From contig NC_057752.1 in NCBI RefSeq assembly GCF_004010195.1, positions 13,294,007-13,355,356 of the forward strand: a stretch of DNA of 61,350 bases, written 5' to 3'. The DNA comes from Chiloscyllium plagiosum. Lineage: Eukaryota. Within the stretch, counting starts at the first letter, position 1. Every line of letters starts with the position of its first letter. Below, piece after piece: positions 1-57,399 of the stretch. The notes under the pieces were generated by a model. That model worked only from the letters and a program-made list of their open reading frames with translations. It was not told where the DNA came from and did not search any database. The position numbers and the translations under genes are program-made.

Positions 1-1658
1 AAGAACATGGCGTAGTTTTTCAGCTCCTGGGAAATACTGACCAACGAAGGGTACCCTGTCGGTTGCAGCACGTGTCTGTCTCCTGAGGAGGTCATTATGG
101 TTTCTCGCTGTGGCACGTCGGAATTGGCGGTCGATGAATTGAGCATCGTACCCCGTTCTTATGAGGGCATCCCTGAGTACTTCCAGGTGCCCGTCACATT
201 CCTCCACATTTGAGCAGATCCGGTGTACGCGTAGGGCTTGTCCAGAGGGGACGGCTGTTTTAATATGTTTCGAATGGAAGCTGGAGAAGTGTAGCATTGT
301 GAGGTTATCCATGGGTTTGCGGTAGAGTGTGGTGCTGAGGTGCCAGTCCTTGATGGAGATACATGTGTCCAAGAATGAGACAGATGGTAGAGAGTAGTCC
401 GTGGTGAGTTTGATGGTGGGATGAAACATGTTGATATCACTGTAGTTGTTTCTCCTTGCCATGCGTCCAGAGGAAGAAACTGTTGTCAATATGTACGGTG
501 TATAGTGTTGGTTGGTGTATAGTGTTGCGCAGAGAAGAAGTCTTGTTAAAACCTGTGCATGAAAATGGTGGCATATTGTGGGTACAAATTTCATCCCCAT
601 GGCTGTTCCATGTGTCTGGATGAAGAACTGGTTGTCAAAGGTGAAAACGTTGTGATCAAGGATAAAGCAGATGAGTTGTAGGATGGTGTTTGGAGATTGG
701 CAGTTGTTGGTGTTGAGTACTGAGGCTGTTGCCGCGATGCCATCATTGTGGGGGATGCTGAGGAATGTTCCCGGTTTGACTAGTCCGTGGGTGCTGAGTT
801 TCTGTAAGAAATCTGTAGTGTCGCGACAGAAGCTGGAGATTCCCTGTACAATAGGTTTCAAGATGCCTTCCACATAGCTGGAGAGATTCTCACACAGGGT
901 CCCATTGCCCGATACGATGGGACGTCCTGATGTGTTGGCTTTGTGTACCTTTGGAAGGCAGTAGAAGTTGCCTACGCGAGAAGTACGTGGGATGAAGGTG
1001 CGTAGGGAACTCTGAAGGACTGGATCCAAAGTCCTGATGAATGTTTTTAGTTCACTGGTGTGCTGTTTGGTCGGATCAGCCGGTAGTTGCCTGTAGTGTT
1101 CCCGGTTATTCAGTTGTCGGTACACTTCCTTGCAGTAGTCCGTTCCATTCTGAATGACAATGGCTCTTCCTTTTTCTGCTGGTTAGATGACAATGTTGCG
1201 ATTTGGTTTTGAGAGCATGGATGGCGTTGCGTTGTGATCAAGCGATATTCTGCTCTACTTTGTGGGTACAGCTGACGAATCTGGCATTTATATATTTCCT
1301 GACGGTTTGAGCATACATAGGCAAAAGTGAGGACTGCAGATGCTGGAGATCAGAGTCTAGATTAGAGTAGTGCTGGAAAAGCACAGCAGGTCAGGCAGCA
1401 TCCATGGAGTAGGAAAATCGACATTTTGGGCAAAAGCCCCTGAATGAAAGGTTTGAGCATACGTGTCAAGCCCAGGGCAACAGCCCTCCGGTGGGGTCCA
1501 AGTTGCCCCTCTACAGATCTCTTTGATGACTGACTGTGTTCCAGTTTGTCAGTGGGCTCATTGGGATCACTGCTGGCATCTTGAAAAAATTCCGAGTGTC
1601 TCATCCGTGTGATGAATTCCTCCATGTCCATAGGGTCCGTTTTGGTGGTGGCAGAATC
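1..1658 (-). mobile_element. Penelope-like element (PLE) reverse transcriptase region, degenerate, runs off window start
   Basis: Minus-strand translation gives PLE-type motifs across frameshifts: DMEEFITRM..EFF, TWTPPEG..PGLDTYAQ, QTHGTAMG (RT motif B), YIDNSFFLWTHG (degenerate YIDD motif), GQALRVHRICS...DRVPFVGQYFPGAEKLRHVL. Interrupted at 1317-1449. Confidence 0.85.
1317..1449 (-). mobile_element. Short PLE-terminal element, family A (degenerate hammerhead)
   Basis: Matches AAAGTGAGGACTGCAGATGCTGGAG... family; 13-bp TSD GGTTTGAGCATAC at 1304-1316 and 1450-1462. Confidence 0.85.
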
Positions 1659-1660
1659 CT

Positions 1661-1967
1661 AGTATCCCTACAGTGTGGAAGCAGGGATACACACCAAATC
1701 TCCGAAGAGCATCCTGCACTGACCCACCCCACCTTACCCAACCCTGCAACCCTCATGGCCAATCCATCAACCTTCACCTCCCTGAACATTATTAGTATTT
1801 AGCATAGCTAATCCAACTTAACCTGCACATCTTTGGACTGTGGGAGGAAACCAGAGCACCCAGACACAGGGAGAATGTGCAAACTCCACACAGACAGTCA
1901 ACAGAGGGTGGAATCGGACCCGGGTCCCTGGCGCCGTGAGGCAGTAGTGCTAACCACTGAGCCACCG
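1661..1967 (-). mobile_element. HE1-type tRNA-derived SINE
   Basis: tRNA-like head (GGTGGCTCAGTGGTTAGCACT...GGGTCCGATTCC on minus), HE1 body, CR1-like tail. Confidence 0.9.
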
Positions 1968-2319
1968 TTTTGAAAAGTCGGTTTTTGTTGATGTTTGTCC
2001 TGAGCAGCCCCATGATGCAGAATTCTGGGCTTCTAGAGACACACACACGCGCACACACACACCAGGACAAACACCAACTGAAGGACCGTGAAACACACTT
2101 CTTGTTCGATATGAAACTTGTCAGTCTTCCAAAGCAAGGAGCTGTACACTAGAGCATGCAGATCAGCAGACTCTAAATACAAGGTTCTATACTGAGGGAG
2201 CTCAATGAGAAAAGACCGCAATCGAGGACCCTCCAACCATGGTGTACTGAGGGACTTCCAGCCACCAAAAATGCCCCTGGGCAATATGAATATGGAATGT
2301 ATTTAATGTAATGGAAATT

Positions 2320-2735
2320 CTTACATGCAGCCTGTACTGTAAGTGGAATGTGGCACCCTGGAGTGCCATGTAAATCTAGGATGCGGGTGCAAAACTAATG
2401 AAGGAAGGTGAGTGGGATTTTGGCCTTGATCCAAGTGGATTTGAGTACAGGAGGAAAGCTCTGAGAAAGTGAGGACTGCAGATGTTGGAGATCAGAGTTG
2501 AAGAGTGTGGTGCTGGAAAAGCACAGCCGGTCAGGCAGCATCCGAGGGGCAGGAGAATCGACGTTTCAGGCATAAGCCAAAGCTGCCTTGCTGAAATCGT
2601 ATCGAACTTTGGTGAGACTGCACCTGGAGTTTGTGTACAGTTTTGGTTTCCTCATCAAAACTGAGTTTGATGGATTTTTGGAAACTAGTGACTTCAAAGG
2701 ATAAAGAAATATCAAGGTAAAATGGATTTGAGGTT
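2320..2735 (+). mobile_element. Old CR1 ORF2 3' fragment
   Basis: EYRRKA.LLKSYRTLVRLHLEFCVQFW motif after removing the 2461-2578 insertion. Confidence 0.7.
2461..2578 (-). mobile_element. Short PLE-terminal element, family A (truncated within HHR stem II)
   Basis: Family A sequence; flanked by AAAGCT at 2455-2460 and 2579-2584. Confidence 0.85.
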
Positions 2736-3029
2736 AGCTTCCTTACAGTGTGGAAACAGGCTCTTCAGCCCAACATGTACACACCAAATGCTTTGAAGAG
2801 CAACCTACCCAGACCCATTCACCCCTGACTAATGTACCTAACACTATGGGCAATTTAGCATCACCAATTCACCCACCCTGCACATCTTTGGGTTGTGGAA
2901 GGAAACCCACGCAGATATGGGGAGAATGTGCAAACTCCACACAGACAGACAGTCACCCAAGGTGGGAAGTGAACCCAGATCCTGGTGCTGTGAGGCAGCA
3001 GTGCTAACCGCTGAGCTACCGTGCCACCC
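2734..3029 (-). mobile_element. HE1-type SINE
   Basis: Same head/body/tail as other copies. Confidence 0.9.
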
Positions 3030-4944: not shown

Positions 4945-5032
4945 CCCTCCGCAGAGGCTGCCAGACTTGCTGAGTTTCTCCAGCATTCTCTGGCTTTATT
5001 TCCGATTTTCAGCATCCGCAGAATTTTGCAGT
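4945..5032 (+). mobile_element. Diverged relative of PLE terminal family A (no intact HHR)
   Basis: GCTGCCAGACTTGCTGAGTTTCTCCAGCA...TTTCAGCATCCGCAG resembles GCTGCCTGACCTGCTGTGCTTTTCCAGCA...TCCAGCATCTGCAG. Confidence 0.55.
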
Positions 5033-8234: not shown

Positions 8235-8800
8235 GTTATACAGTCATACAGCACAGAAAAAGACCCTTTGGCCCACCCAGTCCACGCCGACCATAATCCC
8301 CAAACTAAACTAGTCCCACCTGCCTGCTCCTGGTCTATATCCCTCCAAACATTTCTTATTCATGTCCTTATCCAAATGTCTTTTAAACATTGTAACTGTA
8401 CCCATATCTACCACTTCCTCAGGAAGTTCATCCCAACTCTGTATAAAAGAGTTGCCCCTCATGTCCTTTTTAAATCTTTCTCCTCTCACCTTAAAAATGT
8501 GTCCCTTAGTCTCAAAATCCAACCCCCAGGGAAAAGACACCTGCTATTCACCCTATCCACGCCCCTCATGATTTTATAAACCTCAAGGTCGCCCCTCAAC
8601 CTTCTACGCTCCAGTGAAAAACGTCCCAGCCAATCCAGCCTCTCCCCTTAACCCAAGCCCTCCAATCCCGGCAACATCCTGGTAAATCTCTTCTGAACCC
8701 TCTCCAGCTTAATAATATCCTTCCTGTAACAGGGAGAGCAGAACTGGGCACAGTCCTCCAGATGAGACCTCACCAATGTCCTGTACAACCTCAACATAAT
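8235..8800 (-). mobile_element. CR1 LINE 3' end
   Basis: MLRLYRTLVRSHLE...LERVQKRFTRMLPGL; CR1 tail. Confidence 0.9.
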
Positions 8801-8899
8801 TTCAATCAGCAATACAGGATAATTGTCTTTGACCAAAGAATTAGAGTTGTTCAGTATGATGTAGATAAATGGAAGCCAGATATGCAATGAAAGATGATC

Positions 8900-9235
8900 A
8901 CCTTTTACACCCTCAAGATATTGCAAAGTGTGTAGCAAGCAATTCAATACTGTTGAAGTGTACTCTCTTTTGTAATGTCGAAACACAACGACCGATTTCT
9001 ACACAGCAAGGTTCCATAAACAGCAAGGTGATAATAACCGGATAGCTTGGGTTTAGCAGTGGAGCTTGAGAGATGAACATTGGCTGGGGGAGATCTCCAC
9101 TGGTCATCTTAGAAATAATGCCATCCACAGCTCTCACCTACATCTGCCTGAAAGGGCGGACACGCCCTCAGATTAACATTGATTGATGTTGATACGGTGA
9201 GATGAAGCTCATGCGGAGAGCACTGTTTGTTGCGC
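8900..9235 (-). mobile_element. DeuSINE/SacSINE1-like ancient SINE relic
   Basis: Reverse complement resembles the copy at 16925-17975 (GATGGCATTATTT..AAGA, GCTGTGT..AAAT.GGT.GTTGTGTTTC). Family assignment from memory of the consensus. Confidence 0.55.
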
Positions 9236-9419
9236 TGTAGGGTTTGAGGTGATTCATGGCCTTCGTGGAGCTGTCTGCCTTGCATTAGAATCTGATCCAT
9301 CATTACCTCTTGCATCTAGTTTTCTACTGGTACATGGAGCCACTTCATAGAATCCCTTCAGTGTGAGAGCAGGCCATTCAGCCCATTGAGTCCAAACCAA
9401 CAATCAACCTAATGTAAAC

Positions 9420-9965
9420 CAATTCTTTTCCCACTGGCGGGTGAGTTCAAAACTAGAGGGGGCGGGGGGCATAGGTTTAAGGTGAGAAGGAAAAGATTTA
9501 AAACGGATCTGACTTTTTCACACAGAGGGTAGTGCGTGTGTGAACTGCCAGAGGAAGTGGTGAATGGGAGTACAGCTACAACATTTAAAAGACATTTGGA
9601 GAAGTACATGAATAGGAAAGGTTTGGAGGGATATGAACCAAACACAGGCAGGTGGGACTAGTTTAGATTATCTACAGTATGGAAACAGGCCCATCGGCCC
9701 ACATCGACCCTCCAAAGAGTAACCCACCCAGACCCATTCCCCCTGAATGATGCACCAATTTTGGATTGTGGGAGGAAACCGGAGCACTTGGAGGAAACCC
9801 ACGCAGACACAGGGAAAACATACAAACTCCACACACACCGTCATCTGAGGTGGGGATTGAACCTAGGTCCCTGCTGCTGTAAGACAGCAGGGCTAACCAC
9901 TGAGCCACCATACTGCCCAGGCATTTAGTTTGGGGAAACCTGGTTGGTGTGGATGAATTAGACCG
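9420..9965 (+). mobile_element. CR1 3' end interrupted by minus-strand HE1 SINE (9664-9918)
   Basis: CR1 tail resumes TTTAGTTTGGGGAAACCTGGTTGG after the SINE. Confidence 0.85.
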
Positions 9966-10139
9966 GAGATCTCCTTTAGTCCCAAAACTGCTGAGATCTT
10001 TGCACTCCCCTAATTCTGGCCTGAGTGTTGCTAGAGAAAGAGACATTCCACTGAAGGTTTGCATCTTGCACTCGTGAGAACAGACACAAGGGAATAACAA
10101 TTTATACTGTATGAGGAAAGGATGCTGATTGGTTGACAC

Positions 10140-11138
10140 GTCATAAAGATGTACAGCACAGAAACAGACCCTTTGGTCCAACTCGTCCATGCCAACCAGG
10201 TATCCTAAATTAGTCCAATCCGATTTCCCTGCACTTGGTCCGTATCCCTCTAACCCTTTCCTATTGATATACCGTTCCTTTTAAATGTTGTAATTGTACC
10301 AGCCTCCACCACCTCCTCTGGCAGCTCATTCCATTCCCTCTGTGTGAAGAAGTTGCCCCTTAGGTCCATTTTAAATCTTTCCCGTCTCACCCTAAACTTA
10401 TGCCCTCTCATCTGGACTCTCCCACCCCAGGGAAAAGATCTTGTCTACTTACCCTCATGCCCCTCATGATTTTATAAACCTCTGTAAGGTCACCCCTCAG
10501 CCTCCGACGCTCCAGGGAAAACAGCCCCAGCCTGTTCAGCCTCTCCCTGTAGCTCAAACCCTCCAATCCTGGCAACATCCTTGTAAATCTTTTCTGCACC
10601 CTTTCAAGTTTCACAACATCCTTCCTATAGCAAGGAGACCAGAACTGAACTCCGTATTCCAAATGTGGCCTAACCAATGCCCTATACAGCCGCAACATGA
10701 CCTCCCAACTCCTGTACTCAATACTCTGACCAATTAAGGAAAGCATACCAAATACCTTCTTCATTTTCCTATCTACCTGCGACTCCACTTTTAAGGAACT
10801 ATGAACCTGCACTCCAAGGTCTCTTTGTTGAGCAACATTCCCTAGGACCTTACCTTTAAGTGTATAAGTCCTGCTAAGATTTGCTTTCCAAAAATGCAGT
10901 ACCTCGCATTTATCTGAATTAAACTCCATCTGCCATTTCTCAGCCCATTGGCCCATCTGATCCAGATCCTGTGGTAATCTGAGGTAACCTTCTTCGCTGT
11001 CCACTACACCTCCAATTTTGGTGTAATCTATAAACTTACTAACTTCTATGTTCACATCCGAACTATTTATATAAATAATGAAAAGCAGTGGATCCAACAC
11101 CGATCTTTGTGGCACACTGCTGGTCACAGGCCTCCAGT
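10140..11138 (-). mobile_element. CR1 LINE, 5'-truncated (RT C-terminal half and 3'UTR)
   Basis: ORF 10408-11127: VPQRSVLDPLLF, degenerate FADDTK, WQMEFNSDKC, YRALVRPHLEY. Confidence 0.95.
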
Positions 11139-11419
11139 CAGATCTGATTGCTCAAGGTGTTACCATGGGAAATGATTATCCCCTATACTTTTAACTTTGG
11201 TAGGGTGCAAAGCATGGATGTATTCCTTTCTCCTCCGAAAGATAATTGCCCACATCTGAATATATTTACTTTCTAACAATTGTAAGTGCAACTGATGACC
11301 TTAGATTGGTGCATTACCAAGCAATAGTGTGGCTTTTGAATATCCCCCATTTTAATGGCTACACCAAGCCTTCATCTGACCAGGCCCTACACTCTGGATT
11401 TCCCTCTCTATCTTTCTCA

Positions 11420-11942
11420 TCATAGAATCCCTGCAGTGTGGAAACAGGCCATTTGGCTCAACAAGTCCCCATTGACCCTCTGTAGAGCGTCACACCCACA
11501 CCCATTCCCCTACTCTATTACTCTACTTTTCCCTTGACTAATGCACCTAACCTGCACATCCCTGAACACTGTGGGCAATTTAGCATGGCCAATCCATCCT
11601 AACCTACACATCCTTGAATACTATGGGACAATTTAGTACAGCCAATTCACCCAAACCTGCACACCTTTGGACTGTGGGAGGAAACCAGAGCACCCAGGGG
11701 CAATTTAGCATGGCCAATCCATCCTAACCTACACATCCTTTGAATACTATGGGACAATTTAGTACAGCCAATTCACCCAAACCTGCACACCTTTGGACTG
11801 TGGGAGGAAACCAGAGCACCCAGAGGAAACCCACGCAGGCACAGGGAGAACGTGCAAACTCCACACAGACAGTCCCCGAGGTTGGAATTGAACCCGGGTC
11901 CCTGGTGCTGTGAGGCAGCAGTGTTAACCATTGAGCCACCGT
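11420..11942 (-). mobile_element. HE1-type SINE with internal tandem duplication
   Basis: About 125-bp segment repeated (about 11573-11697 and 11698-11822). Confidence 0.9.
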
Positions 11943-13309
11943 GTTAAAGCTCTGCCTCGCTGACTAATTTTCAGTTGTCTAATCTTCTTCCTTACACGAC
12001 TTAGTTTCAAACATTCTGAATGAAAATTCTGATAACTCTTCTGTGGTCGACTTCAAGGGGGTCTGGCACTGTGGAGGCACCTGATGTCTTTTTGCTGTAG
12101 TTCAGGTAGGGTCACTCATGATAATGTTAGAGCTTGGAGAAGGATACAACAGAGTTTCATTCTTTCACGTACATTGACAGGATTGAACAAGTTTGACTGA
12201 AGGTCAAGCAAGCTGTCAATCCAAAGCCTTCTGCCGCATCTCTATTTAACAGCACGTTGCATAATAATTCTTGTTCTCACATGAATCAGTCACATCCCCT
12301 GTTTTATTCAGAATAGTGCACAGGTGTTCAGCTAAAGGCATTGGTCATGCACTGTGCCAGCTGAAGTGGAAATATGAAGAAGAATAGGAATTTATTGCTT
12401 TCAGAACCCAAGGCACTCGTTTAATTTGTGTCGGCAAGTGCAGGCTGGACCTCAGACATTGAACAACTTCTGAAGTCTGATCAGGAGCTTTTTTGATCAA
12501 AGGACCTTCATGTGAGATAACATTAGACTAGAACCACAGCCATCTTTAATTGTCGACATCAATACTTCACTTCAACAGCCTCCTGACACGCCAACTGAAA
12601 AGCAGACCTGGAGAAAAGCTTTTTCTGATATAAAAGGAGCGTCAGAATATTTAAAATGGGTAATCTTCCCTGATTACCTCAAGGCATTTTGAGAGCTTTG
12701 AACTCCCGTGTGTACATTTACTTGTGATGTCTTCAGCGCAGTTAAATTCATCTCCACTTTTGATCAAACTTGCAGGCAATATGAAGTTTGTTTCTGAGCA
12801 CCGTGCAGTGATGAAACAAAAAGCATACCTCAGTCCATGTTCCTTCTTCACAAACACCTTGATCCCTGTTCTTGGTGCATTATCAGTGCTCTGCCCCACT
12901 TCATTGGTCCGCCCCACCAGCTGCTAGAGCCATGTCAGTCCTCAAGGGGTCGTTGAAGAGTTGTATACAGTCAAGTGTCGTTGACTCGACATCGTAGCTC
13001 AGCCCCACTCAGTGCAGGCTGGAAAGAGTGAGATGAGAGAAGCGGTCTGAGGAATGTCGTGAGATGGTGAAACCTACCTGCGAGGATGAGTTGAATCCGA
13101 AAACCATGTGTAACTCTGCCATTCCTCCATCATCCCTGTGCTCATTGACCTTTATTGGAGAAAACTGCACCACACTGGCTGAAAACTCCTTCATTTTAAA
13201 ATTCCTGATCTCTTTGGTTTCAACATCTCTTATCCCTCCCTACGTCTGTAATTGGCTTCAGCAGCTCAAATCTCTGAGAGCTCTTCACTGGAATTATGGA
13301 GTTTATTTT

Positions 13310-13610
13310 TCCTTTACTCATTCATGGGATGAGGGCGTTGCTGGCTAGGCCCAGCATTTATTGCCCATCGCTAATTGCCCTGAGGGCAGTTGAGAACCAA
13401 CCCCATTGCTGTGGGTCTGGAGTCACATGTTGGGCCAGACCAAGTAAGGATGGCAGTTTCCTTCCCTAAAGGACATGAGTGAACCCGATGGGGCTTTTCC
13501 GACAAATTTCACCATTGGCTGTGGCGGGATTCAAGCCCGTGTCCCCAGGATGAACTGAGGAGTGCAGATGAGTATTCCAGCGATAATTTCACTAGGCCAT
13601 CGCCTCCCTG
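13310..13610 (-). mobile_element. Non-LTR retroposon 3' end (CR1/L2 group)
   Basis: Tail ...GGGCAATTAGCGATGGGCAATAAATGCTGGGCCTAGCCAGC on minus, shared with the 50790 copy and 59150-59215. Confidence 0.6.
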
Positions 13611-15287
13611 TTTGATTATGTCATGCTTGTGTCAGTGTGGGCTGTAGCCATCGTCATTGGCTGTCTGTCAATTTCCAGATGACAGGATTGTTGAGTTTCT
13701 GTTGTGGATTTTCATGTGAGTGAGCAGGCTCGTTCTCGAGGCCCTGGGTCTTAGGGCACCTGGGGGCAGGATGTAGTCCCGTGAGGTCGTGGGATCCGCA
13801 AGGCAGGATTTGCTCCCTCTCCCTTCCTTCTCTGTAGCTCCTTTGCCTCATCTTGAAGACTCAGCGTGATATAGTTCAATGGACAAGTTGTTGCCATTTC
13901 AAACAATTGGGAGCGAGCCCCCCCCCCCCCCGCCCCAATCATTAACGTCAAGAGCATCTTTGAAGTGTTTGACTTTGTCCTCTCCTGGAACACTGGCTCT
14001 TTGAGAATTGGAAGGACAAGATCTAGCAGAGATGGCAGGGAAGAGAGGTTTGGGGGGTGGGGGGGGAGTGGATGCTTTTCAGATGTTGCCTGAATGCTTC
14101 AAGATAAGCACAGACATTGTTTGATGACAGGAAAGCTGTGACAGAGCTAGAAAACAGCACACATTTAGTGTCATGAGTCACAGAGATGTACAGCATGGAA
14201 ATGGATCCTACGATCCAACTCGTCCATGCCGACCGGATATCAGAAATTAATTTAGTCCCATTTGCCAGCATTTGGCCCATATCCCTCCAAACCCTTCATA
14301 TAACCACCCAGATGCCTTTTAAATGTTGTCATTGTACCAGCCTCCACCACTTCCTCTGGCAGCTCATTCCATACACGTACCACCCTCTGTGTGAAAAAGT
14401 TACTCCTAAGTTCCCTTTTATATCTTTCCCCACTCACTTTAAACCTATGCCCTCTAGTTTTGGACTTCCCCACCCCAAGGAAAAAACCTTGTCTATTTAT
14501 CCTATCTATGCCCCTCATGATTTTATAAACCTCTATGAGGTCACCCCTCAGCCTCCGACGCTCCAGGGAAAACAGCCCCAGCCTGTTCAGCCTCTCCCTA
14601 TAGCTCAAATCCTCCAACCCTGGCAACATCCTTGTAAATCTTTTCTGCACCCTTTCAGGTTTCACAACATCCTTCCTATAGCAAGGAGACCAGAATTGCA
14701 TGCAGTATTCCAAAAGTGGCCTAACCAATGTCCTGTACATCCACAACATGACGACCCAACTCCTATACTCAGTGCATTGACCAATAAAGGAAAGCATACC
14801 AAACGCCTTCTTCACTATCCTATCTACCTGCGACTCCACCTTAAAGGAGCTATGAACCTGCACTCCAAGGTCTCTTTGTTCAGCAACACTCCCTAGGACC
14901 TTACCATTAAGATAAGTCCTGCTAAGATTTGCTTTCCCAAAATGCAGCACCTCACATTTATCTAAATTTAACTCCATCTGCCACTTCTCAGCCCATTGGC
15001 CCATCTGATCAAGATCCCATTGTAATCTGAGGTAACCCTCTTCGCTGTCCACTACACCTCCAATTTTGGTGTCATCTGAAAACTTACGAACCAGACCTCC
15101 TCTGTTCACATCCAAATTATTTATATAAATGAGGAAAAGTAGTGGACCCAGCACCGATCCTTGTGGCACACCATTGGTCACAGTCCTCCGGTCTGAAAAA
15201 CAATCCTCCACCACCACCCTCTGTCTTCTACCTTTGAGCCAGTTCTGTATCCAAATGGCCAGTTCTTCCTGTATTCCATGAGATCTA

Positions 15288-15412
15288 CCACCTGATGAAG
15301 GAGCGTCGCTCCGAAAGCTAGTGTGCTTCCAATTAAACCTGTTGGACTATAACCTGGTGTTGTGTGATTTTTAACTTTGTACACCCCAGTCCAACACCGG
15401 TATCTCCAAATC
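15288..15412 (+). mobile_element. 125-bp hammerhead-containing insertion, family B (probable PLE terminal repeat)
   Basis: 15-bp TSD ATTCCATGAGATCTA (15273-15287, 15413-15427); the paralogous CR1 near 38490 shows the empty site. Confidence 0.92.
15289..15323 (+). ncRNA. Minimal type-I hammerhead ribozyme motif
   Basis: CAC-CTGATGA-A-GGAGC(GTC)GCTCC-GAA-AGCT-A-GTG: 3-bp helix I, 5-bp helix II, palindromic AGCT helix III, predicted cleavage after CUA (15320). Confidence 0.8.
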
Positions 15413-16543
15413 ATTCCATGAGATCTAACTTTGCTAATCAGTCTCCTATGAGAAACCCTGTCGAATGCCTTACTGAAATCCATATAGATCACATCTACCG
15501 CTCTGCCCTCATCAATCCTCTTTGTTGCTTCTTCAAAAAACTAAATCAAGTTTGTGAGACATGCTTTCCCACGCACAAAGCCATGTTGACTATCCCGAAT
15601 CAGTCCTTCCCTTTCCAAATACGTGTAAATCCTATCCCTCAGTTTTCCCTCCAACAACTTGCCCACCACTGAGGTCAGGCTCATTGGTCTATAGTTCCCT
15701 GGCTTGTCCTTACCACCCTTTTTAAACAGTGGCACCACGTTAGCCAACCTCCAGTCTTCAGGCATCTCACCTGTGACTATCGATGATACAAATATTTCAG
15801 CAAGAGGCCCAGGGTACTAGGCCTCTAGGGTACACCTGATCAGGTCCTGGGGATTTATCCACCTTTAACCGTTTCAAGACATCCAGCACTTCCTCCTCTG
15901 TAATATAGACATTTTTCAAGAGGTCACTATTTATTTCCACAAATTTCCACTCATCTTCCATATTCTTCTCTCCAGTAAACTCTGATGCAAAATACTCGTT
16001 TAGTATATCTCCCCGATCTCTTCTGGTTCCACACATAGCTGGCCTTGCTGATCTTTAAGGGGCCCTATTCTGTCCCTAGTTACCCTTTCGTCTTTAATGT
16101 ATTTGTAGAATCCCTTTGGATTCTCCTTAACCCTGTTTGCCAAAGGTTGAGTTCTCAGTGAATATTTTATTCACTAATTTGCTTTTCTATTGGATGTTGT
16201 CTTCTGAGATGCTGGGAGAAAGTCTTCCAGTCCTCACTTATAAATGTTTTTTCTTCCTCTCTGCTCTGCTCAAAGGCAGCTGTCGAAATATAGTTCAGTG
16301 TGCATTCCTGAGTCTGGCTGCATTGTCTTTCCAAGCTGGCTAACTAGCAGGCATGCCTTTCATCCCCAAGACGTGAAACTACCACACACATGAATGAAAA
16401 TAGGCGGTGCAAATTTCTTGGCACTGACTCAGTTGCCTCATGGTGACATCTTTAAATACAATTGGGAATGTCAGTGCAGTCATTTTGTTGATTGCATATG
16501 GGTCTCACGAAGCTTACCTCAATCTGTGGTTAGCTGAATTAGC

Positions 16544-21025: not shown

Positions 21026-22164
21026 GTGTTATGTTTTCTAAGCTGATGAAATTGGCAAAGGAATCCATTCAAACTTCTTACAATGTTGTGACCGTGTCCA
21101 GACACACCAACTCAGATGCCTTGCGTAGATTTGCAGTTACCAATCTTTCTTGTTGGCATTAGTCTGAGATATTGGTACCAAGTGGCAAGGGATGTTTCTC
21201 ACAAAGTCCTCAGCAGAAGACTGGCTCAGTCTTGATAAAGAGTAGACGCTTATTCCACAATATTTTATAGCTGGTTACATTACATTTGAGATACAAGAAT
21301 CCATCATACTGCGACATAATACAAGCTGTCCTTAAGGGGAGGGTCACATTCCTGTGGCTGAAATGGTCTCACCCAGAACTGGTACTGAAGACCGGTTAGC
21401 TTTTTCCCTGGAACAGTCCTTTATACCCTGATAGGGGGAGAGTATTGCTATCGCCACTCCGATGGGAGTGCAGCAAGAACCATTTGCATCTGTCAACTGA
21501 AACTTGTTTGGCATTCTGATTGTCAACTCCCTGATGCCCTTGTTAAATTGATGTGGTGCTGTCTCACACTAACCATGAGGCCTCAGGTTCTGTTTCTGGC
21601 CTGTACAATTCAACTAATTTCTGTCTGGGCAGTAGGAGGGATGTTACAATGAGCCTCAGTAGATCCCGGAGCTGCAGAACAGAGATAGACAAATCTCCCA
21701 TTGAGCTTGCTAGGAAGTCTGGATGTTGAATAAGGATTGGATTGGGTTTAGGGAGAACTCTTGAGGATCAAACAAAAAACTCCCCATTCTCCACCCCGTG
21801 TTCCCTCTCCTCATGTCCTTCCCGTGTTCACTCCCCAAAACATCCCAACACCCATGACCTCCATGTTGCCTCATGTTCCCCTCACATTACATCCCATATG
21901 CCCTCCTTCTCGTGTCACCTTTCTCCCATTTACCCTCCATATTCCACCCCCCCTAAGTTATCCACATCTCCCCCACCCCACTTTGTGCCAGAGCATGAGA
22001 TGTACTTAGAATAACAGACATTATGGACCCCTCTTGATCATCAGTATAAGCTATGAATCATGCATTCATTTTGTACAGCATTTATTGGTGAGAATCCCTT
22101 TCTTCCTTGACTCTTTCATCTGTATCCATAATCAAACTCAAAGACTAAAACTGAATTTTTAACG

Positions 22165-22710
22165 ATAGATTGTCACCAGGGAAAATAGCCCTGGCCTATT
22201 CAGCCTCTTCCTATTGCTCAAACCTATGCCCTCTCGTTCTGGACTCGCCCACCCCAGGAGAACACCTTGTCTATTTACCCTATCTATGCCCCTCATGATT
22301 TTATAAACCTCTATAAGGTCACCCCTCAGCCTCCAACACTCCAGGGAAAACAGCCCCAGCCTATTCAGCCTCTCCCTATAACTCAGATCCTCCAACCCTG
22401 GCAACATCCTTGTAAATCTTTTCTGCACCCTTTCAAATTTCACAACATTCTTCCTGTAGAAGGGAGACCAGAATTGCACGCAATATTCCAACAGTGGCCT
22501 AATCAATGTCCTGTACAGCCGCAACATGACCTCCCAACTCAATGCCCTTCTCTGCATTAAGTTTCGTCTGTCACTTGTCTCCCCACAAGCCTGTCCATGC
22601 CTCTTGAAATCTTACACCACCATTCTAATGGTTCACAAAACTTCCAAGTTTTGTATCTTCTGCAAAGTTTGAAATTGTGCCCCGTGCAATCAAGCCAAAG
22701 TCATTAACGT
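22165..22710 (-). mobile_element. CR1 fragments
   Basis: SWEVMLRLYRTLIRPLLEYCVQFWSP...RFTRMLPGL. Confidence 0.9.
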
Positions 22711-37378: not shown

Positions 37379-37498
37379 GAGGAGAAAGTGAGGTCTGCAG
37401 ATGCTGGAGATCAGAGCTGGAAATGTGTTGCTGGAAAAGCGCAGCAGGTCGCAACAGGAGAATCGACGTTTCGGGCATAAGCCCTTCTTCAGGAATCC
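37379..37498 (-). mobile_element. Family A short element with complete hammerhead motif
   Basis: Minus: GATTC-CTGAAGA-A-GGGC(TTAT)GCCC-GAA-ACGT-C-GATTC (37460-37497); CATTCAAGGTAATTT duplicated at 37364-37378 and 37543-37557. Confidence 0.9.
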
Positions 37499-37564: not shown

Positions 37565-39155
37565 ATAGAGTCATTGAGATGTACAGCACGGAAACAGACC
37601 CTTCGGTCCAACTTGTCCATGCCGACCAGATAAGCCAACCTAATCTAGTCTCACTTGCCAGCACTTGGTCCATATCCCTCTAAACTCTTTCTATTCATAT
37701 ACTCATCCAGATGCCTTTTAAATGTTGCAATTGTACCAGCCTCCACCACTTCCTCTGGCAGCTCATTCCATACACGTACCACCCTCTGCGGGAAAGGTTG
37801 CCCCTTAGGTCCCTTTTATATCTTTCCCCTCTCACCCTAAACCTATGCCCTCTAGTTCTGGAGTCCCCCACCCCAGGGAGAAGACTTTGTCTATTTACCC
37901 TATCCAAGCCCCTCATGATTTTATAAACCTCTATAAGGACACCCCTCACCAATGTCCTGTACAACCGCAACATGACCTCCCAACTCCTGTACTCAATACT
38001 CTGACCAATAAAGGAAAGCATACCAAACGCCTTCTTCACTATCCTATCTACCTGCGACTCCACTTTCAAGGAGCTATGAAACTGCACTCCCAGGTCTCTT
38101 TGTTCAGCAACACTCCCTGGGACCTTACCATTAAAATAAGTCCTGCTCAGATTTGCTTTCCCAAAATGCAGCACCTCGCATTTATCTGAATTAAACTCCA
38201 TCTGCCACTTCTCAGCCCATTGGCCCATCTGGTCAAGATCCCGTTGTAATCTGAGGTAACCTTCTTCGCTGTCCACTACACCTCCAATTTTGGTGTCATC
38301 TGCAAACTTACTAACCATACCTCTTAAGCTCACATCGAAATCATTTATATAAATGACGAAACATAGTGGACCCAGATCCTTGTGGCACATCACTGGTCAC
38401 AGGCCTCCAGTCTGAAAAACAACCCTCCACTATTACCTTCTGTCTTCTACCTTTGAGCCAGTTCTGTATCCAAATGGCTAGTTCTCCCTGTATTCCATGA
38501 GATCTAATCTTGCTAATCAGTCTCCCATGATGAACTTTGTCAAACGCCTTACTGAAGTCCATGTAGATCACATCTACCGTTCTGCCCTCATCAATCCTCT
38601 TTGTTACTTCTTCAAAAAACTCAATCAAGTTGTGAGACATCATTTCCCACGCACAAAGCCATGTTGACTATCCCGAATCAGTCCTTGCCTTTCCAAATAC
38701 ATGTACATCCTGTCCCCCAGGATTCCCTCCAACAACTTGCCCACCACTGATGTCAGGCTCACTGGTCTATAGTTCCCTGGTTTGTCCTTATCATCCTTCT
38801 TAAACAGTGGTACCACGTTTGCCAGCCTCCAGTCTTCTGGCACCTTACCTGTGACTATCGGTGATATAAATATCTCAGCAAGAGGGAGGTCACCATCTAT
38901 TTCCCTACAGTCTATATGTTCCATATCCTTTTCCACAGTAAATACTGATGCAAAACACTCATTTAGTATCTCCCCCATTTTCTATGGCTCCACACAAAGG
39001 CCGCCTTGCTGATCTTTGAGGGGCCTTATTCTCTCCCTAGATACCCTTTTGTCCTTAATGTATTTGTAAAAACCCTTTGGATTCTCCTTAATTCTATTTG
39101 CCAAAGCTATCTCATGTCCTCTTTTTGCCCTCCTGATTTCCCTCTAAAGTATACT
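37565..39155 (-). mobile_element. CR1 LINE, 5'-truncated, with two internal deletions
   Basis: FADDTK, DFSKAFDKV, PGNYRPVSLTS; close paralogue of 14170-16145. Confidence 0.96.
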
Positions 39156-40508: not shown

Positions 40509-41515
40509 AATCCTCAGCTATACACTTGTGACAACATTCTCAGGGTGGGAAATGGGGGGGAGACGTGTAAAGTAGGGGTTCAATCTCATCCCAGGGAAGC
40601 CAATTCATTTAAAATGATCCCAAAATGTTGACTCCAAGAGCCCAAGTTTGAAGCTAAAGGGAAGGTTGAGGTATATCAGGACAGAAAGCCGCCTTTACAT
40701 TGCTTGGCTCTCTGTGGCATTTCAGATGAGTGCATTTCCTCTTCAAAATTAGGGAAAGGGTCAGTTCTGGGTAACAGGAGGCGGCCTTACTTGCTTTGGG
40801 GCTGTAGACAGCAGGAGATGGGGTGGGGAGGAAGTGTAGCAGAGACAGAGACAGGGAGGAGAGGCAGAGGCTTCTGTTGGTCATGCAAGGCTATCCACAA
40901 CATCGTTTATAAAGCAGGCATCCAACTTCCTGAGGATCATCTGTACAACTGTGAACTATTGACCAACTAAACACACAAATTTAACCCTTTATAAGGGGAG
41001 CAGTGATGTTTAAGAATTAGGTTTATTTCTGGCATGCAGTACCTTGCAACAAATGACACCAGTTGCTTTTCCCAAAAATATGTGTCACATGACAGAGCTT
41101 CATGTTTCCAAAAACTGAGGGTGATGACTATCTGTTTCACAGAGAGTTGAAGGAAGTCATTCCACTTTGAAGCTGCCGCTGCCTCCCCAGTGTTGCTAAT
41201 TCATTCAGTGTAAGGAGAGACTTACACTGCAGACTTCCTGCACACTCAACAGCCTGCTCTGGTGCCCTCTCATGTAAGGCCTTCTGCCAGACAATGGGAA
41301 GTCTGGCTGGCTCCTTTGGAACAGTCCCAGCCCCTGTTCTTTCTTCGAACATTGCCACCAAATGTTTCTTTCCTCTCCTTTTCAGAAATATCGAATTTCT
41401 ACCCAGATCGAGAGGAACAAATGTTTTCTCATTCTTCAGGACATTTCACATACTGTAAATGAAAGCACTTTACAGAGCATTCCTGTGCTGGCTAATTAAC
41501 TGTACTATCAACATT

Positions 41516-41824
41516 TAATCCCACTGCCCTACTCTCTCCCCATAGCCCTGTATCGATCCCCAAACTAATCCCACTGCCCTACTTCTCCCCATAGCCCTGT
41601 ATCGATCCCCAAACTAATCCCACTGCCCTACTCTCTCACCATAGCCCTGTATCGATTCCCAAACTAATCCCACTGCCCTACTCTCTCACCATCGCCCTGT
41701 ATCGATCCCCAAACTAATCCCACTGCCCTACTCTCTCCCCATAGCCCTGTATCGATCCCCAAACTAATCCCACTGATCCGCTCTCTCCCCATAGCCCTGT
41801 ATCAGTCCCCAAACTAATCCCACC
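41516..41824. repeat. 50-bp tandem array (about 6 units)
   Basis: Unit TAATCCCACTGCCCTACTCTCTCCCCATAGCCCTGTATCGATCCCCAAAC. Confidence 0.95.
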
Positions 41825-42249
41825 TCCTAACTACACACAGAACTAAAATGGAAACTCATCCAATTAAATCCAAAGAACGTTGTCGGGGGAGATGATGATG
41901 TTTTACGCAGTGGGCTCTGAAAGCCTCAGCTGTACCAGTAAAAACCATGTATTCCCTCTCGCTGAGTAGCTGAACAGTCCTCCTTCCTATAATGGCTGCA
42001 CTGCGTTAACAGTGGGAGAGCGTGAGCATGAATCTAAACAAGAGGATGCCCTGTCATAACAAGTTGCAGTTGATAACATCTTCACAATAGGCACAGGATA
42101 CATTGGCAAGCTCGACTAAATAATGAAGACGATCTGAAGACACCAATGAGGTATCTGTCTCCATGAGGAGACTCTTCTTTCCCCCATCCAAGACTGTTTG
42201 CCCCCATCAGATTGAACGAAGCTGAATGTAGTCTCCAAAACGTTAGCTA

Positions 42250-43920: not shown

Positions 43921-44330
43921 GTGGGCTTTAGGCCTTGCCAATCTTTGTCACAATACCCACAACTGGCAATATATTCTTGGATCGACTTTTGTTTATCATA
44001 TTTGGTTGAGTCTGGCTTGTTGTGTATGACTGAGGCAATAAATTAACACGTCTGATATTAATTCTTTGTGACAGTGTTATTTCTCCTGTCACATCTTCCA
44101 AGTGTGATTGTTTGTTCTTTTTCCTTTCAAATGGTCTTAAATTCTGCAGTACCTAAATGCTGTGATATTCTTGGCTTTAAAGTCCTTTTAATCTTGCATT
44201 AAATCAGCATTGTTTTATTCTCTTTCACTGTGTCTGGAAATAGCAATGCTGTTTCCATTTTCTGTCTGTTGCAAAACTATTACACAATGCAAACAGTGCT
44301 ACTTTTCCTATAAGCTTTAAGTGTGCATAT

Positions 44331-45399
44331 TATAGAATGCCCACAGTGTGGAAGCAGGCCATTCAGCCCATCGAGTCTACATCACCCCCTCCAAAGAGTA
44401 TCCCACCCTATCTCTATAATCCCACATTTCCCCTGACCAATCCACCCTAACCTGCACATCCCTGGGCACTATGGGACAATTTAGCACGGCCAATCCACCC
44501 TAACCTACACATCCCTGGGCACTATGGGACAATTTAGCACGGACAATCCACCCTAACCTGCACATCCCTGGACACTATGGGACAATTTAGCATGGCCACT
44601 CCACCCTAACCTGCACATCCCTGTGCACTATGCGACAATTTAGCATGGCCAATCCACCCTAACCTACACATCTCTCGGCACTATGAGACAATTTAGCATG
44701 GCCAATCCACCCTAACCAGCACATCCCTGGGCACTATGGGTAATTTAGCATGGCCAATCCAAAATAACCTGTACACCCCTGGGCACTATGGGTAATTTAA
44801 CATGGCTAATCCACCCTAACGTGCACATCCCTGGGCACTATGGGACAATTTAGCATGGCCAATCCACCCTAACCTGCACATCCCTGGACACTATGGGACA
44901 ATTTACCATGACCAATCCACCCAAGCCTGCACACCCCTTGACACTACGGGGCAATTTAGCATGGCCAATCCACCCGAACCTGCACATCCCTGGACACTAT
45001 GGGACAATTTAGCATGGCCAATCCACCCTAACCTGCACGTCCTTGGGCACTATGGGTAATTTAGCACGGCCAATCAACTCTAACCGACACATCCCTGGAC
45101 TCTACAAGACACTTTAGCATGGCCAATCCACCCTAACCTGCACATCCCTGGACACTATGGGACAATTTAGCATGGCCGATCCATCCTAACCTACACATCC
45201 CTGGACACTATGGGGCAATTTAGCATGGCCATCCACCCTAACCTAAACATCCCTGGACACTACGGGACAATTTAGCATGGCCAATCCACCCTATCCTGCA
45301 CATCCCTGGACACTATGGGACAATTTAGCAATGCCAATCCATCCTAACCTACACATCCCTGGACACTATGGGACAATTTAGCACGGCCAATCCACCCTA
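44331..45399 (-). repeat. HE1 SINE tail followed by 53-bp tandem array (about 18 units, 44437-45399)
   Basis: Reverse complement of the 28210 unit, more diverged. Confidence 0.96.
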
Positions 45400-45610
45400 G
45401 AATCACAAAGTGTCACAGAGTGTGTAAGAGAATCACAGAGATTCACAGAATGTGTAACAGAATCACAGAGATTCACAGAGTAAGAGTATCACAGAGTGTG
45501 TAAGGGCATCACAGATATTCACAGAAAGGGTAAGGAAATCACAGAGTGTCACAGAGTGTGTACGAGAATCACAGTGATTCACAGAGTCTGTAAGGGAATC
45601 ACAAAGTGCC
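45400..45610. repeat. Minisatellite of about 30 bp built from TCACAGAG subunits
   Basis: GAATCACAGAG(AT/TG)TCACAGAGTGTGTAAG-like units. Confidence 0.85.
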
Positions 45611-49419: not shown

Positions 49420-49990
49420 AGGGACATAGAAATGTAGAATATAGGTACAGGAGAAGGCCCTTCAGCATGTCAAGGCAGAAGTGGGTACTGCAGATGCTGG
49501 AGATTAGAGTCAAGAGCAAAGTGGTGCTGGAAGAGCACAGCAGGTCAGGCAGCAGCCAAGGAGCAGCAAAATCGACGTTTCGGGCAAAAGCCCTTCATCA
49601 GGCTTTTGCCCGAAACGTCGATTTTCCTGCTCCTCGGATGCTGCCTGACCTGCTGTGCTCTTCCAGCACCACTTTGCTCTTGACCCTTCAGCACATCGAG
49701 CCTGCTGATCATGGATCTCAGTCCCCTGTTCCCGCTTTCGCCCCCATACACTTTCATCCCTTTATTCCCTACAAACGATCCCTAACTCCCACTTGAAATG
49801 CTTCGGCCTCAACTGCTTGTTGTGGCAGAGGATTCCAAGGGTTTCCCCACTCTCTGGTTTTGCTGTACTCCCTCCATCACCAGAACACCCTTCCTCAGAT
49901 AAGGAGACCCAAACTGCACACAATACTCCAGGTGTAGTCTCACCAAGGCCCTGTCCAACTGCAGCAAGACATCCCTGCTCCTGTACTCTT
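49420..49990 (-). mobile_element. Old CR1 3' end hosting a family A insertion
   Basis: CATAGAAA..AGAATATAGG..CAGGAG tail; LVRLHLEYCVQFG motif. Confidence 0.75.
49468..49683 (-). mobile_element. Family A element with long inverted duplication (hammerhead at the axis)
   Basis: Arms 49509-49592 and 49601-49684; TSD CCCTTCAGCA (49458-49467, 49684-49693); minus CTGATGA-A-GGGC(TTTT)GCCC-GAAACGTC. Confidence 0.92.
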
Positions 49991-55177: not shown

Positions 55178-55406
55178 AGTAACAGCGTCTATCAGATTAA
55201 TGTCTTTTGAGCCAGATTACTACCCTGCAGTAGGCCACACCTAAAGCCTCTTCTTAGAGTAGCAAGTGGTTTTCCTCTATCACTTTAGACCAAGTAAGCC
55301 CCATAGGCCCAGTGAGAGAAAGGAATGGTGGCATCTGTCCACTCCAACCACATGTTGCCACTGGTTGGCATCTTATGCTCATATTACAGCATAATAGAAC
55401 TGGAGT

Positions 55407-56158
55407 ATTTGATTTGATTTGATTTATTGTTATCATGTACCTAAGTACAGTGAAACGTTGTTTTGTGAGCAGCACAGGCAGCTCATAACATACAAGGACA
55501 TACCAATCATAGGGTGTTTAGACAGAGCAAGGCACACAAGGTTACGAGTGCACAGGAGGTGTGCAAAAAGCAAGATCAGCATTCGATTTGAAATTTGAGC
55601 AGTCCATTCAGCAGTCTAATAACAGCAGAGAAGAAACTATTCTTGAACCTGTTGGCATGTATGTTTAGGCTTTTATATCTTCTGCCTGATGGAAGCTGTT
55701 GTAGGAGAGCATTATCAGGGTAGGAGGGGTCTTTGATGACATTGGCCACCTTTCCGCAGCAACAAGAAATGTAAATGGAGTCCATGGAGGGGAGGTTGGC
55801 TTTCGTTATGGTCTGGGCTGTGCACACCACCTTCTGCAGTTTCTTATGGTCCTGGGAAGAGAAGTTGTTGTGATGTATCCAGATAGAATGCTTTCTGTGG
55901 TGCAGCTATAAATATTGGTGAGGGTTCTGATGGACATGCCAGATCTCCTGAGGAAGAAGAGGTGGTGTTGTGCCTTCTTGACCGTCGCAGCTATGTGGGA
56001 AGTCCATTGTTGGCGATCGTTACTCCTAGGAACTTGATGTTCTCGACCCTCCCCACCTCAGCTCCATTGATGGAGTCAGGGGTGTATCCTCCTCCTTGCT
56101 TTCTGAAGTCAATGATCAGCTCTTTAGTTTTGCTGGCGTTGAGGGAGAGATCGTTGCA
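55407..56158 (-). mobile_element. Rex1/Babar LINE 3' part
   Basis: LSLNASKTKELIIDFRK, KFLGVTI, LPSGRRYKS..RFKNSFF; (TCAAA)n tail. Confidence 0.9.
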
Positions 56159-56164
56159 GAGTCT

Positions 56165-56361
56165 TCCAAATGGAAACAAACCATTTATTCTGAACTCGTC
56201 CATTCCGACCAGACATCCCAATCAGTCCTCATCCCATTTGCTAGCATTCAGCCCATATCCTTCCAATTCATATACCCATCCAAATGCCTCTTAAATGTTG
56301 CAATTGTACCAGCCTCCACCACTTCCTCTGGCAGCTCATTCCACACACGCACCACCCTCTG
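56165..56361 (-). mobile_element. CR1 3' end
   Basis: QRVVRVWNELPEEVVEAGT. Confidence 0.85.
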
Positions 56362-57181
56362 CAACATAACAGAATGCTCTTCCATCTTTCCTAGAATAGG
56401 GAGTAGGCCACAGGGGGTTAAAAAATGGTTCACTGTGTCCAACAAAAGGTGAGCTTTATTTTCCCCTCAATTCTTTTACAGTTGCCCATCACTAAATTGT
56501 TTGCTCAGCCATTTCAGAGGGCATTTCCTGTAGTTCTGGAGTCTGATGCAGATCCTCTCCGAAAGGCTATGAGCAAGCCAGATAGGTTTCTGCAGTTACC
56601 ATGGCTACTGTTATTGAAGTTAACTTGGTCATCCACCAGTAGGATGTGAACCTATATGCCGGAGCCTGGGCCGTCTAGGATTACTAGGCCCCTGACATTG
56701 CCACAACACCATCATCTCTCCTTAACCTCTCTGGCAAGTGGATGGTAAAACACAGTCATGCTTCCAAGAGCATTTTCTAAGAGGTCAGGTCATGTAAACT
56801 ACGAAACTATGGCATCATCTTTCCAGGCAGCACTGAAACCAACTACCGATACTTTTCAGACCGGCAGCCTCAGGTACATTGTGCACATCTGTCAATGTCC
56901 CATAGCAATGTCAAATGAAACAGAGGGAAACCAGCAGCTAAAGATCATTAGACTAATATAATGGGTCATTTAGAATAGCAATCCCGGGTACAAAGGTGAA
57001 CACATTTGACTTATGGCACAGCGGTATTATGAAACTGCCAACTTGTGAGTGATCTTGTTTATTATGTTCGAAACCAAACAGGAGCTAAGATGGCAATAGT
57101 CATTCAGCAATCTTGATTGCTTTGTTCAGGTCCACTTGAGAGACGCTGGCACACTTTGCCCCTCAGGTGGGGCATATTTGG

Positions 57182-57399
57182 GGTGAAAATGTGTTGCTGG
57201 AAAAGCGCAGCAGGTCAGGCAGCATCCAAGGAACAGGAGAATCGACGTTTCGGGCATAAGCACTTCCTGAAGAAGGGCTTATGCCCGAAACGTCGATTCT
57301 CCTGTTCCCTTGGATGCTGCCTGACCTGCTGCGCTTTTCCAGCAACACATTTTCAGCTCTGATCTCCAGCATCTGCAGCCCTCACTTTCTCCCTGAGGG
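57182..57399 (+). mobile_element. Family A element with inverted duplication and complete hammerhead motif (57264-57297)
   Basis: Arms 57184-57261 and 57277-57355; CTGAAGA 57267-57273, GAAA 57287-57290, CGTC 57291-57294; ATATTTGG duplicated (57174-57181, 57400-57407). Confidence 0.92.

Follow-up and report, generated by a model that had tools for sequence, protein, structure and literature searches.

Penelope-like elements that carry an endonuclease (EN+ PLEs) leave insertions of a characteristic form: a pLTR, an adjacent inverted copy truncated at its 5' end, and a tail of 30-40 bp on one side only (PMC8557442; PMC3846280; PMC2377424). Head-to-head repeats have been attributed to self-priming on antisense RNA, and solo pLTRs, which lack target site duplications (TSDs), to recombination or deletion (PMC3846280). 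How the pLTR is regenerated has been called unexplained (PMC2377424). A CX2-5CxxC motif between the reverse transcriptase (RT) and the endonuclease (EN) defines the Neptune/Nematis type (PMC8557442).

The pLTRs of metazoan PLEs also harbor minimal hammerhead ribozymes (Cervera and de la Pena 2014, PMC4209133). In the available portions of that study, the motifs have an unpaired base between positions 9 and 10.1, a G10.1-C11.1 pair, a palindromic 15.2-16.2 and a short helix I. They number thousands per genome (4,000-9,000 in coelacanth and frog), mostly as single motifs "probably related to truncated PLEs" and also as opposite-strand pairs, and a circular-template model is proposed; the same portions make no mention of cartilaginous fishes and map no 5' ends. 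For PAc, a Poseidon element of Anolis carolinensis (Frangieh et al. 2024, PMC11167929), the accessible part of the paper describes two internal RT starts ~90-130 nt past the hammerhead, whose spacing equals the tail, priming of both target strands, an uncut RNA template with no RNA ends at the cut site, a requirement for RNA beyond the RT start, and an ORF that begins in helix II; transcription start and short run-off insertions are not discussed in that part. Non-LTR retrozymes (bioRxiv 10.64898/2026.07.22.740005) are non-coding and pLTR-related, carry type I hammerheads in tandem head-to-tail units with at least two of them, and are known in a cartilaginous fish.

The DNA considered here is a stretch of 61,350 nucleotides of the Chiloscyllium plagiosum genome (NC_057752.1, 13,294,007 to 13,355,356; hereafter the window). 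Its eight short repeats are very probably pLTR stubs of an abundant PLE and not a separate parasite. As a catalogue item this has little importance: the literature already describes minimal pLTR hammerheads, inverted pairs, solo motifs and the optional tail, and copies are about as frequent in the window as in the genome at large. The mechanistic aspect is of more interest. A spike of 5' ends four nucleotides ahead of the hammerhead core, accompanied by an extra G and without a counterpart at the cut site, bears on pLTR rebuilding and on the role of the hammerhead in vivo.

Insertions in the window and across the genome

Unit coordinates are counted from C3 of the CUGANGA core (position 0), with the cut site between +27 and +28. 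A BLAST search with the window copies as query matched exactly eight insertions with ten arms, the number of copies given by the first-pass annotation, and the flanking duplications that it reported are present at all eight (13, 6, 13 with one mismatch, 13, 12, 7, 10 and 8 bp, in order of copies). Two short minus-strand insertions, at 1317-1449 (unit +8 to ~+130, the long "tail" end; a few filler bases mark the 5' junction) and 2461-2578 (+9 to ~+125), begin within helix II and lack CUGANGA. On the plus strand, 28765-28903 belongs to the CTGT-loop subfamily and reaches the long end; its 5' end folds back over a short stretch (28765-28798), at whose junction C3 is lost. The plus-strand copy at 32881-32972 runs from -3 to +90 without a tail and has an intact core with a G-U pair in helix II, and its 12-bp TSD partly overlaps the unit, sharing bases with the unit's 5' end. 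The minus-strand copy at 37379-37497, with an intact core, an internal deletion, the long end and local repair repeats at its TSD, has -4 as its exact first position, preceded by a single extra G.

The third copy extends over 24539-25190 on the minus strand instead of stopping at 24636, since the insertion delimited by its TSD (24526-24538 and 25191-25203) includes 3' UTR and GIY-YIG coding DNA. This 5'-truncated long copy has a short inverted piece at its 5' end and a degenerate GIY-YIG frame (24638-25006, minus strand; Pfam PF01541, E 2.5e-4), whose 21.7 bits fall just below the curated cut-off of 22.6; in a genome-wide GIY-YIG search, 87,999 candidates yielded 150 scored matches. After the frame comes a portion of the 3' UTR, and ~-148 is joined straight to +28, without a hammerhead core, and then to the tail. 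The last two insertions are head-to-head pairs, a state absent from the earlier annotation. At 49468-49683 (TTTT-loop subfamily, arms 95% alike), the minus arm reaches +133 with an intact core (C3 at 49601) and the plus arm runs from +9 to ~+91; at 57182-57399 (arms 96% alike; TSD 8 bp, or 11 with one mismatch), the plus arm reaches +132 with an intact core (C3 at 57267) and the minus arm +87. An 86-nt stretch of this second pair matches a long copy elsewhere (L008) without a difference. Scanning 130 of the window's 258 non-repeat frames gave no host coding domain, save one match read as LINE-derived.

An unbiased sample of 60 x 10 kb (0.6 Mb) holds 69 insertions with 94 arms, of which ~7 insertions may belong to sister families. 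The sampled density, 105-118 per Mb, therefore makes the window average for its genome, and extrapolates to a notable ~400,000 insertions genome-wide, about a third of them with an intact core. A 33-nt pattern is matched exactly at 32,220 genomic sites and its reversed control at none, which excludes chance; the coelacanth and frog figures above are far smaller. Only 11 of the 69 sampled insertions extend beyond -60. The 3' ends of the sampled arms cluster at +82-91 and +124-130, ~40 nt apart, resembling the two RT starts of PAc, and 26 of the 69 insertions are head-to-head, in 25 of which a long end is paired with a shorter one. The optional one-arm tail of 30-40 bp and the adjacent inverted copy are those of EN+ PLEs. 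TSDs of at least 11 bp flank 30 sampled insertions, with a mode of 14-15, unlike the solo pLTRs explained by recombination or deletion. Tandem arrays, or tandem units with two or more hammerheads, are absent from the window and from the 69 sampled insertions, which are dispersed and single or head-to-head, in contrast to retrozymes.

The parent element

What is the unit part of? Spanning -4 to ~+88 or ~+128, it is the pLTR end of a longer element. In long copies it lies 160-190 nt downstream of a GIY-YIG frame (L051, L052, L055, L056, L060 and L062), and in 10 of 20 loci picked by N-terminal DNA it lies directly ahead of the ORF N-terminus in the same orientation; these two placements come from separate copies and not from a single gap-free one. 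The layout is that of an EN+ PLE, in which one ORF encodes RT and then a GIY-YIG endonuclease, and the 5' truncation, head-to-head repeats and TSDs are likewise those of the group. L056 has both RVT_1 (E 0.005) and GIY-YIG (E 0.002) under their cut-offs, and L060 has GIY-YIG above it. No intact full-length copy or full ORF was seen among the long copies, because assembly gaps split them. A CX4CxxC motif ahead of GIY-YIG in L056, L060 and L062 points, at the level of sequence, to the Neptune/Nematis type. Copies of the TTTT-loop subfamily that reach the N-terminus have their start codon at +164, beyond the tail, so that the unit does not encode the N-terminus there as it does in PAc.

The first-pass annotation linked the repeats to PLEs, which the long copies support, and proposed an independent SINE-like parasite, which they do not, because the whole unit aligns to the parent element's own pLTR end. 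Its alternative, that these might be ordinary solo PLE terminal repeats, describes in kind what was found. A tree of short and long copies (86 columns, low resolution) has no short-only clade, with 36 short/long label changes against 39.1 when shuffled (66 of 500 shuffles as low), and five sets of identical sequences contain both short and long copies. No Rfam family reached its gathering score, and no head of tRNA, 5S or 7SL type was found. What sets these insertions apart from canonical EN+ PLEs is that most comprise only the last 90-130 nt and have a common 5' end.

The 5' end at -4

Among the 94 sampled arms, 43 begin between -8 and +7 and 30 are scattered from +8 to +60. Over the 32,220 exact arms, at least 17% begin 4 nt ahead of the core, against ~2% at the cut site. 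The base at -5 is a purine in 5,456 of these arms and a pyrimidine in 18 of 18 distinct long-copy upstream sequences. G:A at -5 is 3,599:1,857 (1.94) against a genomic 0.71, a two-fold excess of G that is not element-encoded; at +28 it is 49:51 among the first 100 boundaries listed, counted by eye (Fisher p 6e-4 versus -5). None of 40 G-preceded loci checked runs on into upstream pLTR, and ~29 of them are inverted pairs; among 11 distinct single insertions read by eye, the G belongs equally to the TSD end in 8, is extra in 2 and is ambiguous in 1. Unselected single copies in the sample have six G and three A at -5, few cases for a G excess.

The end at -4 is common to stubs and parent element: an N-terminal locus (L163) also has its first base exactly there, preceded by G. 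It is not an absolute end, as about half to two thirds of the exact arms reaching -4 continue past -8 (21,005 matches to a pattern 2 nt shorter). The sequence at -4 fits the initiator consensus, YYANWYY. A splice acceptor at this position is ruled out by the lack of AG at -6/-5. Reads from a poly(A) single-cell library have no place, at -4 or at the cut site, where many molecules begin or end, a weak test given that 94% of these reads continue into unrelated sequence. Reads on one copy, L180, do have loose ends at place 509 (= -4) in X19, X3 and X1; depth also steps 6-8-fold there, and joints lead into 505-510. These signs count for little, since other subfamilies part from L180 immediately upstream of -4, which would yield the same picture; the loose letters agree at 0.34-0.53, showing that part of them is unrelated flank and no more, and the two strands are about equal, as expected for copies inside host transcripts.

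The spike and the G excess are a detail worth following, and they fit run-off at a capped RNA 5' end; untemplated 5' G has been taken as a cap signature for L1 (PMC9341517). Other conceivable sources of the G are non-templated addition, which may occur at any RNA end, and partner arms rich in G. Run-off of internally primed cDNA at such an end is a reasonably probable explanation for most stubs. In this scheme the element protein would nick both target strands ~14 bp apart, and reverse transcription would start inside the element RNA at ~+128 or ~+88, the spacing of these starts making up the 40-nt tail, as demonstrated in vitro with the anole element. With RNA beginning at -4, cDNA would run off after 90-130 nt and be sealed by microhomology, leaving a stub; where both nicks were primed, two cDNAs would join head to head. 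Longer copies would arise when cDNA moved to the repeat at the RNA 3' end or the template started further upstream, and the hammerhead would be a passenger, copied uncut. PAc is alike in priming both strands and in its template, although it belongs to the Poseidon clade and not to Neptune, so its biochemistry serves here as analogy. Taken whole, with this mechanism, the stubs are probably abortive insertions of an autonomous, endonuclease-bearing Neptune-type PLE.

A stricter version, for which we would put the chances a little short of even, treats the stubs as "strong-stop" products: RT would start 90-130 nt inside a capped mRNA beginning at -4, run-off would leave the G, and long copies would need transfer to the 3' repeat. 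If this were true, PLEs would have a retrovirus-like first-strand transfer and pLTR regeneration would be explained. Each head-to-head pair would then combine two strong-stop cDNAs, one from each nicked strand and each start site, and this genome would preserve the step in hundreds of thousands of junctions. No literature on capped run-off copies was found in a search of partial coverage, which leaves prior publication conceivable.

Could the stubs instead be ordinary truncations, in which RT on a long or tandem RNA drops off near the hammerhead, through its structure or because the short palindromes there are where inverted arms join most readily? Truncation with inverted copies is standard for PLEs (PMC8557442), microhomology around the core is used at junctions, and many arms begin inside the hammerhead. 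Yet an RT travelling 3' to 5' would be expected to stall where it enters the structure (~+30), not once it has left it, and the fold is no stronger than shuffles. The spike falls on a single base and is present both in single insertions and in a copy that includes the start of the ORF; the G excess accompanying it is not seen at +28. We regard truncation as rather unlikely.

A SINE-like or retrozyme-like non-autonomous family, with an internal promoter driving transcription of its stubs or palindromes and PLE proteins copying them anew, would suit the defined 5' end, the very high copy number and the preponderance of short copies (58 of 69 sampled do not reach -60), and non-autonomous PLE derivatives have been described (bioRxiv 10.64898/2026.07.22.740005; PMC8557442). 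It is made improbable by the mixing of short and long copies, including identical ones, and by the lack of tandem units; 58 of 60 head-to-head spans differ, which counts point mutations and is hence weak. By analogy with the anole protein, which needs RNA further on, stubs ending at the presumed RT start would also be poor templates. Still less likely is descent from hammerhead-cut or circularised RNA, which a few arms beginning at +28 to +31 (the third window copy and L106 among them) and the published circular-template model would favor. It is disfavoured for most copies: the core upstream of the cut is present in most arms, and the genome-wide search found no spike of 5' ends at +27/+28. 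Boundaries at +28 (922 matches, ~2,600 once the pattern's base filter is corrected) are no commoner than at +32 (1,593, ~3,200 corrected), each ~2% of arms by sample-based denominators, although the +32 control is raised by small internal deletions and a weak excess at +28 may exist.

The hammerhead motif

The first-pass annotation described the motif correctly in its consensus core, its GUC triplet, its ACGT palindrome and a helix II of 4 bp whose loop varies, and the minimal type I architecture is that of PMC4209133. "Hammerhead-bearing" holds for only four of the eight insertions, those at 32882, 37379, 49468 and 57184, the cores of the others being partial or lost. The core bases, the extra base after A9, G10.1-C11.1 and the palindromic loop 3 occur together in these four and in 24 of the 69 sampled insertions, in which core and helix II are both intact; the predicted seeding of very many motifs through the genome is thereby borne out. 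The best motif, at 57263-57298 on the plus strand, has a helix I of 2-4 bp, CUGAAGA, one unpaired A, the 4-bp helix II, GAAA, palindromic ACGU and GUC, with a predicted cut after 57294.

The proposed downstream stem appears in the predicted fold of this copy, but none of six stretches is more stable than its shuffles (z -0.91 to +0.53). Rfam returned no hammerhead among six matches at E<=1, only hairpin look-alikes far below gathering scores. Across 24 hand-picked copies, helix II is 99% paired, with both-side changes in three pairs and four cells (9-14 of 500 shuffles equally high), values that related copies may yield, and one helix I position is unpaired in 20 of 24. Indirect tests for self-cleavage by the dispersed copies are negative and lend it no support. 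The loop of helix II contains an ATG in the TTAT-loop subfamily.

The family A repeats and their parent element

The family A repeats are real, abundant and mostly ordinary. The unit, a 90-130-nt repeat with a hammerhead motif, occurs at eight window loci (copies 1 to 8: 1317-1449, 2461-2578, 24539-25190, 28765-28903, 32881-32972, 37379-37498, 49468-49683 and 57182-57399), and BLAST with these copies found no ninth in the window. The first-pass annotation had reported eight loci with flanking duplications, and a target-site duplication (TSD) is indeed present at all of them; its description of the loci as hammerhead-bearing holds for four, which have an intact core and a paired helix II, and fails for the other four. 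Copy 3 is a 650-bp insertion that carries GIY-YIG endonuclease (EN) coding DNA and is missing the hammerhead, and copies 7 and 8 each consist of two arms joined head to head. An Rfam scan of the window returned no model matching the unit, and the fold of the unit was no more stable than that of shuffled sequences.

The window density, 8 in 60 kb, is typical of the genome. We sampled sixty 10-kb stretches at round coordinates, 584 kb once N is excluded, and counted 69 insertions (about 7 may be sister families) comprising 94 arms, an arm being one unit copy within an insertion; the density, about 118 per Mb, extrapolates from this sample to some 400,000 insertions per genome. TSDs of at least 11 bp flank 30 of the 69 (mode 14-15), and 11 take in UTR or coding DNA beyond -60, counting from C3 of the CUGANGA core as position 0, with cleavage predicted between +27 and +28. 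Sampled arms have two 3' ends, at +82-91 and +124-130; 26 insertions are head-to-head, 25 of them joining a long end to a shorter one, and arm likeness averages 0.93 within these 26 pairs versus 0.87 between pairs. Window 4954-4985 and three loci elsewhere in the genome (L084, L098 and L122) weakly match a sister family of PLE (Penelope-like element) ends whose tail is related; two further loci, L188 and L189, carry the same insertion with identical flanks at a distance of 3.7 kb, the product of a local segmental duplication.

A genome search with the best copy as query found a pyrimidine-rich 3' UTR continuing upstream of the unit in 8 of 30 loci. Loci retrieved with an endonuclease remnant have the order reverse transcriptase (RT), GIY-YIG, 160-190 nt of UTR, hammerhead and tail, while the unit lies directly 5' of the ORF in 10 of 20 loci retrieved with N-terminal DNA, the start codon falling at +164 in the four loci measured. 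Since the unit follows EN in some loci and precedes the ORF in others, it is the terminal-repeat (pLTR) end of an endonuclease-bearing Penelope-like element (PLE). Between its RT and EN, a CX4CxxC motif suggests that the element is of the Neptune/Nematis type as defined in PMC8557442. No intact full-length element was seen among the long copies, because assembly gaps interrupt them. Long copies L007 and L180 have a splice-acceptor-like polypyrimidine tract whose terminal AG lies about 19-27 nt before the core; an intron of Penelope is described as ending near its hammerhead (PMC4209133).

The annotation had also proposed a separate, SINE-like parasite. In a weakly resolved tree built from 86 columns, 104 short arms intermix with 47 long ones (36 label changes versus 39.1 when shuffled), and five groups of identical rows include short and long arms alike; the data thus lend no support to a separate SINE lineage.

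A preferred 5' end at -4

Starts cluster near the core, 43 of the 94 sampled arms beginning within -8 to +7. Genome-wide, a 33-nt pattern starting at -4 matches 32,220 arms exactly; the base at -5 is G in 3,599 and A in 1,857 of these, and is C or T in all 18 distinct long-copy upstream sequences. In the first 40 G-preceded loci listed on one contig, no copy continues upstream as pLTR, so these loci mark boundaries rather than point changes. Of the arms reaching -4, 17% or more end there; by a slightly looser pattern, about half to two thirds pass -8. G outnumbers A at -5 by 1.94 to 1, whereas the corresponding genomic ratio is 0.71 and that at the +28 boundary 0.96 (first 100 boundaries listed). 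Among 11 distinct single insertions within those 40 loci, the G is common to the TSD end in eight, extra in two and unclear in one; such sharing would be expected if a cDNA with an added C paired with a target G. A copy carrying the ORF start (L163) likewise begins at -4 preceded by G. The sequence at -4 resembles an initiator. Six loci (L020, L093, L101, L046, L053 and L140) have a second copy of a short hammerhead piece (about +6 to +11) immediately before position 0, as though RT had arrived at the end of the RNA and primed on it again.

No such spike marks the predicted cut. Genome-wide, boundaries at +28 involve about 2% of arms and show no excess over a +32 control; these figures are rough, being based on denominators extrapolated from 20 and 26 matches in the sample. 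Upstream element DNA joins +28 directly in two long copies, from -148 at 24636/24637 (copy 3) and from -189 at L106 4204-4575, each suggestive singly.

Possible origin of the short copies

Could the short copies of the pLTR end (stubs) be strong-stop products, internally primed cDNAs running off a capped RNA 5' end at -4? We hold this possible, at slightly under even odds. In PAc, the Poseidon element of Anolis carolinensis, two internal sites serve as starts for reverse transcription, and the spacing between them equals the tail; both DNA strands undergo cleavage and extension, and the template is uncut RNA, with RNA beyond the start site needed (PMC11167929). For L1, an untemplated 5' G has been taken as a cap signature (PMC9341517). 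By analogy, the mRNA would start at -4 and priming at +128 or +88 would give a 90-130-nt run-off cDNA, the stub, presumably not recopiable; priming at both nicks would yield a head-to-head pair with a single tail, and long copies would need strand transfer to the 3' repeat or a template initiated upstream. Against the strong-stop mechanism we count a published alternative that ascribes head-to-head repeats to self-priming on antisense RNA (PMC3846280), and also the RNA data: among 1,404 reads from the single informative library, 94% of them running into unrelated sequence, no RNA start was seen. Earlier papers already describe solo motifs derived from truncated PLEs, as well as opposite-strand pairs, inverted pLTRs and tails; the run-off reading was not found stated in the literature searched, which left out most subscription papers.

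Ribozyme activity and neighbouring repeats

The family A motif shares all features of the PLE minimal hammerhead given in PMC4209133, and covariation within the family is thin. In the same paper a single minimal motif did not cleave and dimers cleaved at a low level; the PAc motif required its protein (PMC11167929), and one of nine frog dimers cut (bioRxiv 10.64898/2026.07.22.740005). Because head-to-head pairs place their two motifs on opposite strands, no cis dimer is possible, and together with poor cleavage in these systems this makes it unlikely that dispersed stubs cut host RNA efficiently. Family B supplies a second minimal hammerhead of PLE type, with a helix II of 5 bp, a loop of 3 nt and the palindrome AGCT; it interrupts a LINE fragment at 15292-15417 (plus strand), and a 14-bp TSD appears to flank it.

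N and matches to repeats in the genomic loci compared make up at least 48% of the window. LINE reverse-transcriptase 3' fragments, presumably CR1/L2-like, are many (8350-15540, 22159-22611, 27492-27905 and 37695-38396). Two 53-bp tandem arrays built from part of a SINE-like repeat lie in opposite orientations at 28108-28850 and 44319-45515, and copy 4 is placed at the end of the former. Minisatellites occupy 41485-41833 (50-bp unit) and 60034-61342 (36-bp unit); the translated 36-bp unit resembles what we take to be a CR1-type LINE coding piece. A Pfam ALKBH8_N match at 58939-59202 on the minus strand (E 1.7e-15) is probably not a host exon, because this model often matches LINE remnants.
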